Source: an uncultured Candidatus Saccharibacteria bacterium (GTDB lineage: Bacteria > Patescibacteriota > Minisyncoccia > Phycocordibacterales > Zambryskibacteraceae). From it: a DNA stretch of 42,042 nucleotides. The notes under the pieces are model-generated. The model saw only the letters and a program-made list of their open reading frames with translations, made no database searches and was not told the DNA's origin. The stretch covers positions 158,897 to 200,938 of the forward strand of contig CAYHDI010000001.1 in assembly GCA_964355645.1 (NCBI GenBank). The letters run 5' to 3'. A program made the position numbers and the translations under genes. Shown piece by piece: positions 1,563 through 39,441 of this stretch (position 1 is its first letter; each line of letters opens with the position of its first letter).

Positions 1563-1600
1563 ATACGCTATAATTTATCTATAGCAAAAATATAGCGTAT
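1563..1600. repeat. 38-bp palindromic direct repeat, copy A (overlaps ATG of the PaaX/Cas2-like gene)
   Basis: ATACGCTATA-18nt-TATAGCGTAT; 32/38 identical to 2181-2218. Confidence 0.9.
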
Positions 1601-2165
1601 GGGCAAGTTAGAAGAGGGGAATAAAATAAGAATCAGAAGACGAGATTTACAACATGCAGTTTTGAATGCTGTTAAAATTACTGGTGTTTTAAGTATTGGA
1701 TTACTTGCTCCAAATGTGATTGGGGCGATGAGCAAACTCGGTATATTACCGAAACCACGACAGAAAGAATACGTGTCCTCTTCTGCTTCCAAACTTGTTA
1801 AACGTGGTTTACTTAAATTTGAAAATGGTCATTATAATCTCACAATTTCTGGAGAAAAACTTTTGCGTCGTTGGGAATTGGAAGATTATAAAATTAATAG
1901 ACCGAAGAAATGGGACAAAAAATGGCGAGTGATTATCTTCGATATTCCAGAAAAAAAGAGAAAAATGCGTCTGCAAATATCGTATCTTTTCAAACAATCA
2001 GGATTATATCGTTTACAGGATAGTGTTTGGGTTTATCCGTATGATTGTGAAGATATTATTGGACTATTGAAAACTGATTTCGGAGTAGGGAAGGATGTTT
2101 TGTATTTAATTGTTGATGAAATTGAAAACGATCGGCATTTGAAGGAAGAATTTCATCTTATATAA
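1599..2165 (+). CDS. PaaX-like protein: winged-helix region plus Cas2/VapD-like ferredoxin-fold domain
   Basis: LVKRGLL..YNLTISG wing; WDKKWRVIIFDIPE..GLYRLQDSVWVYPYD as in the PaaX central domain / Cas2-like fold. Confidence 0.8.
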   Translation: MGKLEEGNKIRIRRRDLQHAVLNAVKITGVLSIGLLAPNVIGAMSKLGILPKPRQKEYVSSSASKLVKRGLLKFENGHYNLTISGEKLLRRWELEDYKINRPKKWDKKWRVIIFDIPEKKRKMRLQISYLFKQSGLYRLQDSVWVYPYDCEDIIGLLKTDFGVGKDVLYLIVDEIENDRHLKEEFHLI

Positions 2166-2180
2166 ATTTGATATCCATTG

Positions 2181-2218
2181 ATACGTCATAAGTTGTCTAT
2201 AGCAAAATTATAACGTAT
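2181..2218. repeat. 38-bp palindromic direct repeat, copy B (15 nt after stop)
   Basis: ATACGTCATAAGTTGTCTATAGCAAAATTATAACGTAT. Confidence 0.9.
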
Positions 2219-8990: not shown

Positions 8991-9830
8991 ATGAAGCGCT
9001 ACAAACCAACAACTCCATCCCGAAGACAAACCTCATCCGTCGAAGTGAGAAAGTTTGTGACCGTTTCAGAACCTTTGAAATCTTTGACTAGAGGATTTCG
9101 TCGAGCCAATGGCCGAAACAATACAGGTCGAATTACCACTAGACACAAAGGAGGTGGGCACAAAAGACTTTATCGCGAGATTGATTTTGTTTACAACAAA
9201 CTCAATGTCCCTTTCACTGTGAAGACTATTGAATACGATCCAAACCGTTCCGGATTTATTGGGCTGGTGGCTTACAAAGACGGTGAACGACGCTATGTTC
9301 TGCTTCACAAATCTGCGAAAGTTGGTGAAGTATATATTGTCTCAGAAACTGCTCCTCTCACCGCAGGGAATAGACTTCCTTTGAAAAATATTCCTGTTGG
9401 AACATTTGTTTACAACGTTGAACTCAAACCACGAGGTGGGGCGAAAATTGCTCGCTCGGGTGGAAATTATGTGGAAGTCTCAGCCAAGGATGGTGGCTAT
9501 GTGGATTTGAAAATGCCTTCAAGCGAAATTCGCAAAGTGCTCGAGACAGCTTGGGCTTCTATCGGTGAAGTTTCAAATGATGAGAACAGATTAACAAATC
9601 TCGGCAAAGCTGGACGCTCAAGATGGCTCGGTATTAGACCAACAGTTCGTGGTACAGCAATGAACCCAGTAGATCACCCACACGGAGGAGGTGAAGGTCG
9701 CCAGGGCCGTGGTCGAAGACGCGCCATCTCAATCTATGGGAAGCCAACAGGCAAGGGTCAGAAATCTCGTCGAACAAAGAAATATTCAAACAAACATATC
9801 GTCCGCAGACGCAAAGTCGGGAATAAATAG
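8991..9830 (+). CDS. rplB: 50S ribosomal protein L2
   Basis: IEYDPNRS, RGTAMNPVDHPHGGGEG. Confidence 0.99.
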   Translation: MKRYKPTTPSRRQTSSVEVRKFVTVSEPLKSLTRGFRRANGRNNTGRITTRHKGGGHKRLYREIDFVYNKLNVPFTVKTIEYDPNRSGFIGLVAYKDGERRYVLLHKSAKVGEVYIVSETAPLTAGNRLPLKNIPVGTFVYNVELKPRGGAKIARSGGNYVEVSAKDGGYVDLKMPSSEIRKVLETAWASIGEVSNDENRLTNLGKAGRSRWLGIRPTVRGTAMNPVDHPHGGGEGRQGRGRRRAISIYGKPTGKGQKSRRTKKYSNKHIVRRRKVGNK

Positions 9831-9834
9831 CCCA

Positions 9835-9870
9835 AAAAAACCATCCGCAAGGGTGGTTTTTTGATATAAT
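9835..9870 (+). terminator. Terminator hairpin fused to a TATAAT -10 box
   Basis: AAAAAACCATCC-GCAA-GGGTGGTTTTTT-GA-TATAAT. Confidence 0.75.
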
Positions 9871-9876
9871 CTATAC

Positions 9877-10494
9877 ATGAGAAGATATGCCTTTGTTGAT
9901 GTTCAAAATACAGAAAGTACCACACAGCAATTTTGTGGTTTTTCTGTAGATTGGAAGAAATTATACGAATATTTATGTCACGAAAGGTGGTCTTGCGATA
10001 AAGTTTTTTTCTATACTGGAATTGAAGTTGGGAACGACGATTTGGCCAATGAATTTGAGTCTTTGTCTAAATTACCTGGTTGTATAGTTAGGGCTAAACC
10101 AGTTTTTGTTTACAAGAAGAAAGATAAAACTGTACAACTGAAATGCGTGAAGTGTGGAGAAGAGAATGTGTCTGTTGTGGATATGGGTTATGACAGAAAA
10201 GCAAATTGTGATGTTGAGTTAACGATGGACATTCTTGATGTAATTAATACTCAACCAGACGCTGAAATTTTTGTTTTGACTGGAGATGGTGATTTTGAAC
10301 CTTTATTAAGAAGGGCCGCTGGTGTTTTGAAAAAAGTTCATTTAGTTTCTAGTACTAAGAAAATAGAAATTGCAGGTCTAACAAAAGCTCGATTTTCTAC
10401 AAAATTAAAAAACTTACTTGTTGATGAAAAAGAAAAAGTGTTTTTCTCAGATATTAATACCTGGAAATATAAGATTAAAAAAGATGTAAATTGA
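9877..10494 (+). CDS. NYN-domain (LabA/DUF88, PIN-like) putative RNase
   Basis: FVDVQN, KANCDVEL, TGDGDF acidic motifs; CxxC insert. Confidence 0.9.
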   Translation: MRRYAFVDVQNTESTTQQFCGFSVDWKKLYEYLCHERWSCDKVFFYTGIEVGNDDLANEFESLSKLPGCIVRAKPVFVYKKKDKTVQLKCVKCGEENVSVVDMGYDRKANCDVELTMDILDVINTQPDAEIFVLTGDGDFEPLLRRAAGVLKKVHLVSSTKKIEIAGLTKARFSTKLKNLLVDEKEKVFFSDINTWKYKIKKDVN

Positions 10495-10520
10495 AACCGC
10501 CACGAAGCGTGGCGGTTTCG
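10494..10520. terminator. Strong hairpin at the NYN stop codon
   Basis: GAAACCGCCACG-AAG-CGTGGCGGTTTC. Confidence 0.6.
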
Positions 10521-10673
10521 AGAGACATCTATAGTATATACAAACTTGCGATAAATGCAAGAATCTGTGGATATCTTAGAATATATCAAAAAGCCACTTA
10601 ATAAATGGTTTTTTTGATAATAAAAAATATTTAGGTATACTTTCAACAGACCCTTTTATTGAGGAACGTTCTT

Positions 10674-10919
10674 ATGTGCACGACGCAAGTGCTTCATTTT
10701 TCGACCCCGTCTCAGGTACTGACTTATTATCCGAGGGAAGAGAGAAACAGAAAAATTCTCGATTTCATCGACAGGTACCATTTGCCCATACGGGTTAGCC
10801 CGGTGGAGGGGGTAGTGACTGAGTTGCGCATTTCTCAAGGCAACTATATTTGGGGTATTTCAACAATCATGAATTACCTCAGGGAAGAGTATGCTGACTG
10901 GATTGCTGCAAGCGCCTAA
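10674..10919 (+). CDS. Small hypothetical protein, possible thioredoxin/GST-N-like fold; paralog 1
   Basis: ATG at 10674 after GAGGA; aligns with 11714-11956 (KI.D....LP, TELR...G...G...I...LRE). Confidence 0.7.
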   Translation: MCTTQVLHFSTPSQVLTYYPREERNRKILDFIDRYHLPIRVSPVEGVVTELRISQGNYIWGISTIMNYLREEYADWIAASA

Positions 10920-10960
10920 CACAGGCGTTTTTTTATTGACAAAATTTTGATTTCCTATAG

Positions 10961-11071
10961 TTAGCAAGAACCGTTCTTGCTAAACTGTGCAAAGCCAGGC
11001 TTCGGACATATACATCTAACTCACGCTATAGCTAATTATAAATGTATTACTTAGGTGTCCAACATCTAAGT
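10961..11071. repeat. Stack of four unrelated palindromes (23, 23, 38, 23 bp) spaced 1-2 nt apart
   Basis: 10961-10983, 10986-11008, 11010-11047, 11049-11071. Confidence 0.8.
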
Positions 11072-11072
11072 G

Positions 11073-11108
11073 AAAAACCACCCTTGCGGGTGGTTTTTTT
11101 GATATAAT
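11073..11108 (+). terminator. Terminator hairpin fused to TATAAT; near copy of 9835-9870
   Basis: AAAAACCACCC-TTGC-GGGTGGTTTTTTT-GA-TATAAT. Confidence 0.75.
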
Positions 11109-11114
11109 GCTTCT

Positions 11115-11630
11115 ATGCAACAACTTGATAAAAAGGCAGTTTGGTTATTTTTTATTTATAATTTGTTCGGGGGTTTAGTCTTTATTTTATTTTTCTCGAT
11201 ATTTATCGGTGGTTTTTTGAGTAGTTTTGTAATCAATGGAAAAATAATTGGATTCTTCTCCATTTTTTCTTTTCTCTTTAATTTCTTTTGGTTAGCAGTT
11301 CTGTATATTGTTATATGTTTTATTGCGGCAAAATTGACATATAAATATTACAAATATGAACTCACAGATAGGGGATTCAGAAAGGAGTCAGGAATTATAT
11401 ATAAAAAATATGTAACTATTCCTTACGACAGAATTCAAAATGTAGATATTCATCGTGGTATAACTGCTCGTATTCTGGGTTTATCTGATTTGCATATCCA
11501 AACCGCCGGTACAAGTGCCCCGTCTGCAATAGGGGAAGGAAGATTACCTGGGTTATCTGTAGAAATTGCTGAGAGACTTCGAGATGAACTTGTAGATAGG
11601 GCAAAAAATAACAAAGATCAAGGTTTGTAA
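11115..11630 (+). CDS. Membrane protein with bacterial PH domain (YdbS-like)
   Basis: Two TM segments then GIIYKKYVTIPYDRIQNVDI..RILGLSDLHIQTAG. Confidence 0.85.
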   Translation: MQQLDKKAVWLFFIYNLFGGLVFILFFSIFIGGFLSSFVINGKIIGFFSIFSFLFNFFWLAVLYIVICFIAAKLTYKYYKYELTDRGFRKESGIIYKKYVTIPYDRIQNVDIHRGITARILGLSDLHIQTAGTSAPSAIGEGRLPGLSVEIAERLRDELVDRAKNNKDQGL

Positions 11631-11713
11631 TTTAAAAAATCCCCATAAGGGGATTTTTGGTAAGGCAGTTTGGGGTTATAATTTTAATAGACTCTTTAAC
11701 CGAGGATTTTATT

Positions 11714-11956
11714 ATGAGCGGCGTTCAAGAGAAAGATCCTTGGATGAAACTTGTTTTTTGTCCTTGTGATCCTGATCATCAAAAGATTGTCGATCTCGTG
11801 AACGAACATGAATTACCCGTGATTCTGGATTCGGACGAGAATGTTCCCCATACCGAACTGAGGGTGAACAAGGGAGAAATCCTAATCGGCGAAGAACGGA
11901 TTCTCAGACATCTGCGAGAGTGCTTTGTTTCTCGTATCACCCCAATGCCCAGCTAG
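11714..11956 (+). CDS. Small hypothetical protein, possible thioredoxin/GST-N-like fold; paralog 2
   Basis: ATG at 11714 after GAGGA; similarity to 10674-10919; CPC motif. Confidence 0.7.
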   Translation: MSGVQEKDPWMKLVFCPCDPDHQKIVDLVNEHELPVILDSDENVPHTELRVNKGEILIGEERILRHLRECFVSRITPMPS

Positions 11957-12001
11957 ATCCAGCTAGGCATTTTTTATTGACAAAAATTATATTTCCTATA
12001 A

Positions 12002-12039
12002 ACCCCCACACTTACTTGCAAAAAAGTAAGTGTGGGGGT
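12002..12039. repeat. Palindrome with perfect 16-bp arms in the rplJ promoter region
   Basis: ACCCCCACACTTACTT-GCAAAA-AAGTAAGTGTGGGGGT. Confidence 0.85.
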
Positions 12040-12055
12040 AAAGTGGTCCTCGTAA

Positions 12056-12116
12056 GGTCAAAGACAGAAGGCCCTTCGGATACCTCAGGGTAAACGATAT
12101 AAGTCCTTCCGAGATC
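12056..12116 (+). ncRNA. Ribosomal protein L10 leader (autoregulatory RNA); boundaries approximate
   Basis: AAGACAGAAGG...TAAA...CCTTCCGAG pattern typical of L10 leaders, directly upstream of rplJ. Confidence 0.7.
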
Positions 12117-12176
12117 ACTCTCTAACTCCATAAAAGTGGAAGTCGAGACCTTATTTAACAGGTTGTTTTATTTATT

Positions 12177-12665
12177 ATGGCAATATCACGGGCCAAGAAA
12201 GGAGAGATAGTGGACAAACTTAAGACCGCTTTGAAAGGAGCGAAGTCTCTGGTTTTCGTGAACTTCCATGGACTCAAAGTTTCTGAAGCAAGCGCGATGC
12301 GCCGAAGCTTGAAGAGCGAAGGTGTCTCATACGCGGTGACCAAGAAATCTTTGACCAAACGAGTTTTGGCTGATGAGAAATTCTCTGGTACTCAACCGGA
12401 GCTCACAGGTGAACTCGCAGTCGCATGGTCTGAAGATCTCGTCGCTCCCGCACGCGGAGTGTACGGATTCCAGAAAAAATTTCCCGCAGGTTTGAAAATC
12501 CTCGGTGGAGTTTTCGAGAACAAATACATGACGAAGATTGAAATGGAAGAGATTGCTCTCATCCCATCACTCGATGTTCTACGAGGCAAGTTTGTGAATA
12601 TTATCAATTCTCCAATCCAGCGTTTCGCAATTGCGCTTAATGAAATTGCAAAAGTCAGAAATTAA
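12177..12665 (+). CDS. rplJ: 50S ribosomal protein L10
   Basis: FVNFHGLKV, KKSLTKR, ILGGVFE; upstream of rplL. Confidence 0.96.
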   Translation: MAISRAKKGEIVDKLKTALKGAKSLVFVNFHGLKVSEASAMRRSLKSEGVSYAVTKKSLTKRVLADEKFSGTQPELTGELAVAWSEDLVAPARGVYGFQKKFPAGLKILGGVFENKYMTKIEMEEIALIPSLDVLRGKFVNIINSPIQRFAIALNEIAKVRN

Positions 12666-21763: not shown

Positions 21764-21786
21764 TTAGCAAGAACCATTTTTGCTAT
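21764..21786. repeat. Second copy of the TTAGCAAGAA-n3-TTCTTGCTAA palindrome
   Basis: 20/23 identical to 10961-10983. Confidence 0.8.
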
Positions 21787-32494: not shown

Positions 32495-32520
32495 ATAACA
32501 TACGATATATCGTATGTTAT
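32495..32520. repeat. Perfect 26-bp palindrome, copy A (overlaps ATG)
   Basis: ATAACATACGATATATCGTATGTTAT. Confidence 0.97.
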
Positions 32521-32950
32521 GCCACATATTTCAAAAAGAAATTTACGATTAAAACAATTAGAAAATCTTCAATCCGAACTTTTAAATTCCGTTGAGCGTT
32601 CATTTGATAATAACAAAGGAAGACAAGTTTGGGGAGAATTTTTCTCCCGAACTGAAAGGATTATGTTTGCCAAAAGGCTAGCCGTGATCGCCATGCTTTC
32701 CAAAGGTGTATCAGCGCACATGATTGCTGAGGCACTAGGAATGAGCCCATCCACAACTGAACGGATGTCTATACAATACGAAAAAGGGAAATATTTTTAT
32801 ATTATCAAAGAGGCTCTAGGCAAGAAGGATGTTTGGGATATTATCCAAGATATTTTAACCGTGGGAGGTATTATGCCGCCCAGAGCCGGCGGGAAGCGTT
32901 GGAGATCATTTGATAAAGCTGTCCGTAAAGATAAACTTAAAAATAGTTAA
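32519..32950 (+). CDS. TrpR/YerC-YecD-like helix-turn-helix protein
   Basis: FSRTERIMFAKRLAVIAML..GVSAHMIAEALGMSPSTTER. Confidence 0.8.
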   Translation: MPHISKRNLRLKQLENLQSELLNSVERSFDNNKGRQVWGEFFSRTERIMFAKRLAVIAMLSKGVSAHMIAEALGMSPSTTERMSIQYEKGKYFYIIKEALGKKDVWDIIQDILTVGGIMPPRAGGKRWRSFDKAVRKDKLKNS

Positions 32951-32964
32951 AAACGGTTAATGAG

Positions 32965-32990
32965 ATAACATACGATATATCGTATGTTGT
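32965..32990. repeat. 26-bp palindrome, copy B (14 nt after stop)
   Basis: ATAACATACGATATATCGTATGTTGT; 25/26 identical to copy A. Confidence 0.97.
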
Positions 32991-35653: not shown

Positions 35654-36046
35654 TGGTGGAGATGCCGGGAATCGAACCCGGGTGCAAAGTGAGAACGGAT
35701 TGAATTCTACGCGAAGTAGATTGCTTCGTTTGATTCGAATTAGAAAGTACAAAACAAACGAAAGCCCTTCTAACTCTATCCTCTAAGTTTAGTCCCGACT
35801 CGAGGAGGCGTCGGGACAGAGTCCCGAATATTCCACAGCATTCTTAGCACGAGACACTCTAGGAAGCCATGCGCACGAGTGAGCTTACGCTCGAACAGGT
35901 ACGAACTGGAAATCGTTCATACTGAAGTATGGCGATGTCCTAGCAAAAGTTGATTTTGCAGTTGAGTTTTGAAGCGGATTAAGGAGTCACTTCAGCTCCT
36001 TCGCGCATCAATCCGAACGATCTCCTTGTCTAGGCCGATCATCCCC
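35654..36046 (-). ncRNA. ssrA: tmRNA
   Basis: 5' GGGGATG pairs with CATCTCC-ACCA 3' (G3-U wobble); T-arm CCGGGTTCGATTCCCGG; directly downstream of smpB; tag ORF 35959-35885. Confidence 0.96.
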
Positions 36047-39339: not shown

Positions 39340-39367
39340 TCAAATAATACTAACACAACTTTTCTTG

Positions 39368-39441
39368 TCCGCCCTCCACGATTCGAACGTGGGACCCTCG
39401 AGGTATAAGCTCGATGCTCTAACCAACTGAGCTAAGGGCGG
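39368..39441 (-). tRNA. tRNA-Ile, anticodon UAU; CCA not encoded
   Basis: CCGCCCT/AGGGCGG acceptor stem, D-arm GCTC-AGTTGGTTA-GAGC, anticodon arm TCGAG-CTTATAC-CTCGA, T-arm CCACG-TTCGAAT-CGTGG. Confidence 0.95.

Follow-up and report, generated by a model that had tools for sequence, protein, structure and literature searches.

Four palindromes stacked in one spacer of a Patescibacteria genome: a probable pile-up of solo REP-type hairpins

Four different palindromes, packed almost end to end in one non-coding spacer, raise the question of what they record: gene cassettes that came and went, an RNA, a set of protein-binding sites, or the work of hairpin-moving enzymes. The palindromes lie in a stretch of 42,042 nucleotides, here called the window, which corresponds to G000:C1:158897-200938, G000 being a genome of 549.5 kb in 9 contigs with 41% GC; the public runs that contain the window sequence are groundwater metagenomes, none of them an RNA run. 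An earlier note on this DNA interpreted the stack as solo sites left by sequential insertion and loss of different cassettes at one hot spot, or as a multi-operator sink. Its description of the palindromes was reproduced in full (coordinates, sequences, arm matches and spacer lengths). They occupy positions 10961-11071, and the gaps between neighbours are 2, 1 and 1 nt long (AC, T and T):

10961-10983, no strand assigned: P1, 11/11 arm pairs, solo family A REP with core AGCAAGAACSGTTCTTGCT
10986-11008, no strand assigned: P2, 9/11 arm pairs, decayed solo REP of the TGTCCAAAGC-NNN-GCTTTGGACA family
11010-11047, no strand assigned: P3, 12/19 arm pairs, 38 bp with ATAC...GTAT ends and a CTATAG centre
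11049-11071, no strand assigned: P4, 9/11 arm pairs plus one G-T, solo REP of the ACTTRGGTGTC-S-GACACCYAAGT family

The family assignments given in this list are of graded strength and are discussed one by one below.

The stack and its spacer

None of the palindromes P1-P4 carries a T-tract, as the earlier note had remarked; it left unmentioned a separate canonical terminator (11073-11100, an 11-bp stem followed by a T-run), which starts 1 nt 3' of P4. Hairpins with at least 9 pairs number 325 in the genome and form 14 adjacent pairs, compared with about 3 expected randomly, and the P1-P4 stack is the longest cluster of all, equalled in length by no other. A few more mixed stacks exist. One of them, at C2:30848-30969 and 3' of the stop codon that ends a 179-aa ORF, combines a REP of family A with a PaaX-type palindrome of 38 bp, a palindrome of family F and one other hairpin. 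Differences between strains by gained or lost units, which the earlier note had envisaged, were not seen: contigs assembled from four DNA runs and mapped to positions 9700-12400 are identical to the window wherever they cover it (one of them, 944 nt long, crosses 10313-11256 with 0 differences), and none of them represents a variant strain with units gained or lost or with a gene at the stack site. The contigs of two of the runs end around 10787-11044 and 10943-10997.

The stack is embedded in a region with two duplicated elements, the relevant features of which are as follows:

9833-9867, plus strand: terminator with extended -10 promoter TGATATAAT, first copy, directly 3' of rplB
10674-10919, plus strand: Grx1 ORF, 81 aa, with its own terminator at 10910-10930
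10929-10959, plus strand: PROM1, truncated copy of the rplJ promoter (T-run, TTGACA, TTTCCTATA), repeat family D16
11073-11108, plus strand: terminator with extended -10 promoter TGATATAAT, second copy, with TGATATAAT in the T-run of the terminator; layout kept in relatives
11115-11630, plus strand: bPH_2 membrane protein gene, conserved neighbour downstream of the stack
11970-12000, plus strand: PROM2, resident copy of the rplJ promoter, 90% identical to 10929-10959 over 31 nt
12002-12039, no strand assigned: unique palindrome, stem of 16 bp, placed in the -10 region of rplJ and bordered by TAAA on either side

The stem-loop of the first terminator copy (9833) is identical to that of the second (11073-11100) at 27/28 positions when the opposite strand is read, the loop being flipped (GCAA vs TTGC). 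In both copies an ATG follows 6 nt past the -10, that of the NYN gene (9877) and that of bPH (11115), which suggests that both mRNAs are leaderless; relatives keep this layout for bPH. Between the two copies G000 has a 1.2-kb insert that comprises NYN, Grx1, the promoter stub and the stack. Grx1 has no Pfam or NCBIfam match and no match to the thioredoxin fold, so that 'Grx' is a label only; over 64 residues it shares 31% identity with the ORF at 11714-11956, and the search for the Grx1 protein in 40 relatives yielded just the Grx2-type gene of G010, with no identifiable donor of the insert. Six bPH loci of relatives (G018 among them) were read, and two of these (G006 and G019) have an rplB-like ORF, one terminator and bPH adjacent to one another, while the other four have different neighbours. 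No sequence match to the stack was found in the 40 relatives.

The duplicated promoter stub that the earlier note had placed immediately before the stack is real (TTGACA...TTTCCTATA, with the 90% identity over 31 nt listed for PROM2). The likeness of PROM1 to the rplJ copy stops at CCTATA, within the -10 used by relatives, which in five of them reads, by eye, as TAAAGT-like, 16-17 nt past the -35. Both G000 copies of the rplJ promoter lose similarity precisely at the -10, PROM1 being interrupted by P1 and PROM2 by the 12002-12039 palindrome; in three relatives the site of the latter reads TATAAAGT or TGTAAAGT with no interruption. The terminator/promoter copies (A) and the rplJ promoter copies (B), each duplicated, are interleaved as A..B..A'..B', and the stack fills the B|A' junction. 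Comparison with the relatives shows the origin of the spacer to be lineage-specific; the spacer appears to be young and to lie at a rearrangement junction. In G010 (locus L018) the Grx2-like gene is likewise followed by another promoter-like copy with TTGACA, separated from the rplJ promoter by about 0.7 kb that end in a terminator of their own; duplicated-promoter inserts thus recur at the rplJ locus.

With a promoter-like copy on its 5' side and a strong terminator on its 3' side, the stack could be suspected of encoding a small structured RNA with a function of its own, about 135 nt in length and driven by the promoter copy at 10938, with four stem-loops and an end at the terminator. An RNA that started at the crippled promoter copy would indeed contain the four stem-loops and stop there, and the 151-nt stretch with the stack folds far better than shuffled sequences (z-score -5.4, equalled by 0/200 shuffles). 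However, the folding is equally good on both strands (z-score -5.5 on the other one), and neither strand is favoured by the mismatches, since that of P4 becomes a G-U pair on the plus strand and P2 pairs better on the minus strand. The -10 read by eye in the rplJ promoters of the five relatives is missing from the stub copy. A scan for consensus promoters and terminators reported no promoter at the stub and missed the terminator at 11073. Searches against Rfam 15 in gathering and E-value modes identified no family at gathering score for the stack; the best match, Phe_leader, reached 36 bits as compared with the required 55 and rests on the terminator hairpin. The tRNA/tmRNA scan found nothing in the stack, its only hits in the window, both on the minus strand, being an ordinary tmRNA (105 bits, 35654-36046) and, at 39367-39441, a tRNA-Ile (anticodon TAT). 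The stack is not a conserved ncRNA: the one conserved transcribed RNA that the earlier note had named as the outcome fatal to its reading has neither an Rfam family nor a counterpart in the relatives, and we consider a small RNA an improbable explanation.

Families and partner genes of the four palindromes

P1 is almost certainly a solo REP-type hairpin. Its 19-nt core AGCAAGAACSGTTCTTGCT has 12 perfect copies and 1 degenerate copy in the 549.5 kb of G000 and 0 copies in 30 other genomes of the same family, and BLAST revealed no similarity to P1 in the 40 relatives. Starts of 7/13 copies fall no more than 12 nt downstream of a stop codon, 3/13 copies lie in frame within ORFs and are translated as NLARTVLA, and the other three are the stack copy, a spacer copy at C5:34775 and the degenerate one, whose position had been given correctly in the earlier note:

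21764-21786, no strand assigned: degenerate P1 copy with 3 mismatches, 9 nt 3' of a stop codon

In-frame REP copies inside ORFs were noted at C2:989, C2:1610 and C1:42441, at C2:9239 and at the loci L034, L053 and L071. A PaaX-format palindrome is found within about 60 nt of 4/13 P1 copies. The copies at C2:1971 and C2:2698 bracket a 222-aa ORF, RAYT-A, and an A-type RAYT that is 66% identical to it in G010 is bracketed by a compensated variant of P1. On these sequence grounds P1 is assigned to the active REP family A of the genome, with RAYT-A as the putative partner.

RAYT-A is one of three genes of G000 (with RAYT-B and RAYT-C) that score above the Pfam cut-off for Y1_Tnp (26 bits for RAYT-A, 44.9 and 25.8 bits for the other two, cut-off 23). 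The sole NCBIfam match for each is REP_Tyr_transpos, with 32.6, 48.2 and 25.6 bits, all below the equivalog cut-off of 80. The pair of palindromes at RAYT-B is TGGTCAACACTCGGTGTTGACCA and that at RAYT-C is TGTTGACACTCGGTGTCAACA. Sequence searches of the PDB with RAYT-A and RAYT-B returned non-significant matches only (E 0.18-0.72). The AlphaFold model of RAYT-B (pLDDT 78.8) identified as the top PDB match 4ER8, the E. coli TnpA-REP on a REP hairpin (E 8.2e-5, TM 0.62 by the target), followed by the TnpA proteins of IS608 and ISDra2; the predicted structure thus shows the TnpA-REP fold for RAYT-B. The HUH residues H91 and H93 and the tyrosine Y151 are invariant across 11/11 aligned RAYTs, Y151 being the likely catalytic Tyr. 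RAYT-A is, from its sequence, a HUH/Y1 transposase of the RAYT kind, with predicted hairpin binding and predicted transposition activity.

RAYT genes are present in 10/21 other genomes of the same genus, with 1-5 genes each, and palindromes flank 12/17 of the same-genus loci that were read. The orientation of a flanking pair can be read from the loop only, and in the RAYT-A pair the loop base is the same on both sides; judged by the loop in this way, 4/6 P4-type pairs are inverted and 2/6 direct, and 1/4 P2-type pairs is inverted. The B-type RAYT genes carry an additional, in-frame internal copy of the palindrome of their own family, of the same variant as the flanking palindrome of the respective gene, within an extra loop, about 11 aa long and missing from the C-type RAYTs. 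A tree of 11 RAYTs places RAYT-B with the RAYTs of the P2 type (support 100/98) and RAYT-C with those of the P4 type (support 94/97).

P2 and P4 are both single-copy in G000, where a substitution-only fuzzy search found no relatives of either beyond chance, and their families were recognized elsewhere with degenerate scan patterns that were composed around the deviations of P2 and P4 themselves. The P2-like pattern has 85 sites in 76 metagenome stretches, with sites on both sides of a RAYT ORF in 4 cases, and P2 agrees with the nearest variant at 21/23 positions, both substitutions disrupting stem pairs. The P4-like pattern has 80 sites in 70 stretches of species-representative genomes (mostly Patescibacteria according to record titles), with sites on both sides of 6 RAYT ORFs; P4 agrees at 22/23 positions with a variant that was seen 3 times, and in G014, a member of the same genus, a C-type RAYT is bracketed by P4-type palindromes. 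The matches to both patterns are mostly perfect palindromes. The consensus of the P2 type is absent from the 21 same-genus genomes, and P2 itself, with up to 3 mismatches allowed, was matched once across 200 genomes of the order, a count that tells little, as the family consensus differs from P2 at 4 positions. Perfect P2-type palindromes do occur in two metagenome contigs (L030 and L048), which are 64-75% identical to G000 across shared genes and carry RAYT-A orthologues with flanking P1 variants.

These comparisons show P2 and P4 as slightly decayed members of REP families whose partners in other Patescibacteria appear to be RAYTs of the B-type and C-type clades. As a solo REP-type hairpin, P4 is very likely and P2 fairly likely. 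G000 retains one RAYT of each of the clades B and C, now flanked by palindromes other than those of the P2 and P4 types. Another hairpin of at least 9 bp is found within 12 nt of only 1/85 P2-like sites and 4/80 P4-like sites, so that members of these families do not, as a rule, occur in stacks.

For P3 the comparison set is provided by genes with a PaaX_M domain, one of which lies in the window:

1563-2218, plus strand: PaaX_M-domain gene (1599-2165) between palindromes 1563-1600 and 2181-2218

Of the four PaaX_M genes of the genome, three are bracketed by pairs of 38-bp palindromes detected by the family profile, each pair with a centre variant of its own and matching solo copies, and the fourth has CTATAG-centred palindromes with different arms. 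P3 fits the 38-bp pattern ATAC...GTAT/CTATAG with 0 mismatches on both strands, a pattern drawn with P3 in view. The ungapped identity of 23/38 to copy B (2181-2218) that the earlier note had reported was obtained again on recomputation, and it is reached by only 20/549,202 genome windows on one strand. Among the 111 CTATAG sites 15 have at least 9/16 arm pairs, compared with 1-4 sites for each of five control hexamers, and P3, with 9/16 arm pairs, is one of the 15. Its left arm recurs at 20/21 positions at C3:18529, 5' of the rpsB promoter; a match to this arm in the genus, with 3 mismatches and inside dnaA, was dismissed as chance. An nhmmer profile built from 12 family members found 13 loci, with P3 not among them at E values up to 10, the global alignment score of P3 is 14-15, a value equalled by about eight unrelated windows, and the P3 variant was not seen on the flanks of any PaaX gene, the four PaaX_M genes of G000 included. 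It is only probable that P3 belongs to the 38-bp class that flanks PaaX genes, as a diverged member or as a look-alike, and the balance tips narrowly towards its being a unit of a REP-type hairpin pile-up.

The palindromes that flank PaaX genes overlap the start codons of those genes, as would an autoregulatory operator, and the combination of a separate centre variant for each PaaX paralogue with solo sites is also compatible with a regulatory role. The stack could accordingly be imagined as a protein-binding platform or sink, a set of putative operators or decoys that would either titrate the RAYTs and a PaaX-like regulator or act as an insulator between Grx1 and bPH. Such a role, close to the second proposal of the earlier note, is improbable: binding sites that are maintained should be intact, and P2, P3 and P4, on the contrary, depart from the perfect form of their families.

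The arrangement palindrome-gene-palindrome is shared, in addition to the RAYT and PaaX-like genes, by a 143-aa ORF of the window (gene 32519-32950), bracketed by 26-bp family D palindromes (centre CGATATATCG) at 32495-32520 and 32965-32990. Its top Pfam match is Trp_repressor (26 bits, just below the cut-off of 27), and its paralogue at C2:86468-86860 lies between another palindrome pair. At C2:32364-32787 a 117-aa ORF, which by eye resembles a DUF559/Vsr-type endonuclease, lies between two GC-rich palindromes CCCCTCTCCTTGTYAAGGAGAGGGG. The ORFs of about 375 aa beside family F palindromes were considered as TnpB candidates and rejected, their translations being, by eye, ordinary (S1-, glycosyltransferase- and membrane transporter-like).

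Origin of the stack

The stack is probably a pile-up to which four families have each contributed one solo REP-type palindrome, in a non-coding spacer made by local rearrangement. The hairpins would have been placed one at a time by RAYT-type enzymes acting in trans, on single-stranded DNA beside hairpins that were already present, and P2 and P4 may be relics of earlier or foreign specificities.

The earlier note had derived the same solo sites from cassettes, and its expectation that paired copies of the palindromes would flank genes was borne out, with P1 at RAYT-A, the P2 and P4 types at RAYTs of other genomes and the P3 format at PaaX-like genes; all four types thus pair elsewhere around a gene of 0.6-0.7 kb. 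Four such units could in principle have lost their genes by recombination between the flanks, leaving solo copies in the manner of solo LTRs, and the two interleaved duplications mark the region as prone to rearrangement. However, the solo copies greatly outnumber the genes, with 13 P1 copies for one RAYT-A, and for three of these copies, which are located in frame within ORFs, a stage with a gene is unlikely. The gaps from P1 to P4 are just 1-2 nt long and contain no remains of a RAYT or PaaX reading frame, and no gene-bearing strain was encountered at this site among the contigs of the four runs. Spread of hairpins in trans, as in the established REP/RAYT model, accounts for the data and makes cassette insertion and loss unnecessary. 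The part of the earlier proposal that holds is that the palindromes are solo sites; their sequential insertion and loss as cassettes was not demonstrated, and we give the collapse of cassettes little credence.

Within the preferred reading, i.e. a pile-up of hairpins spread in trans, the stack might further be a layered record of the turnover of hairpins and their partners, in which all three RAYT clades of the genus and a PaaX-type system each left one hairpin here, P1 representing the current form and P2 and P4 fossils of the B and C palindromes from before a switch in specificity. This extension is tentative and rather unlikely to hold as a whole. If true, it would make specificity switching in REP/RAYT systems datable and directly testable, with three enzymes and both old and new hairpins in one 550-kb genome.

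Comparison with known repeat systems

REP/RAYT systems are textbook material for Proteobacteria, and the kind of element described here is already known. The systems of E. coli (YafM, PDB 4ER8), Pseudomonas and Stenotrophomonas, as presented in passages of PMC2817692 and PMC3733652, share with the present families the short dispersed palindromes that lie mostly just 3' of genes, the several REP types per genome with some copies intragenic, and the species-specific variants with compensatory changes in the stem. A HUH/Y1 partner gene between two palindrome copies is likewise described in a passage of PMC2817692, where the two REPs that flank a RAYT gene are in inverted orientation, and the top fold match of the partner protein is 4ER8 itself. 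The differences are in the details. The REP super-families treated in part of PMC3733652 have an unpaired GTAG or CGTC head, in contrast to the 5' starts found here, (C/T)TAGCAAG in P1, TGTGCAA in P2 and ACTTAGG in P4, none of which has either head. The families of G000 have 3-13 copies each, not over 100 as for the systems of those passages; the proteins, of about 210-220 aa, score below the NCBIfam cut-off for RAYT; the B-type genes hold the extra in-frame copy of their own palindrome; and the host is a 550-kb Patescibacteria genome. No report of REP/RAYT systems in Patescibacteria was found in the literature searched.

The packing of several palindromic units head to tail in one intergenic spacer recalls the BIMEs of E. 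coli (in part of PMC2817692), and the interleaving of different repeat families recalls the mosaic spacers of Neisseria (in part of PMC3733652). A BIME, as far as these passages describe it, is made up of the units of one system with regular spacing and alternating orientation, whereas the stack contains four unrelated families once each, 1-2 nt apart, and two of its units are orphan relics and one is of the type linked to a regulator gene. The 36-38 bp palindromes that flank the PaaX genes resemble P3 in length, in the ATAC...GTAT ends, in the CTATAG centre and in the presence of solo copies between genes, and differ from it in that the arms of P3 have diverged (12/19 pairs) to the point of being missed by the family profile. 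Integron attC sites and cassette arrays are similar in that imperfect palindromes punctuate small genes, but the units here measure 23-38 bp and go with genes for HUH transposases or with PaaX-like genes. The genome has no integron integrase (the best TIGR02249 score, 82 bits, falls short of the cut-off, 265, and so do those of all 14 control genomes), and the stack is not an integron-like cassette record.

What is new, in comparison with these systems, is the mixed, one-of-each composition of the stack, the presence of orphan units whose partners survive only in relatives, and the cognate palindrome in frame within the B-type RAYT genes. For annotation, such stacks should be taken neither for cassette arrays nor for ncRNA genes. 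A 550-kb genome that keeps three RAYT lineages, each with a co-varying hairpin, along with orphan hairpins, offers a compact test set for the joint change of specificity of HUH enzymes and their hairpins, comprising three enzymes, their current and former hairpins and a PaaX-type palindrome.
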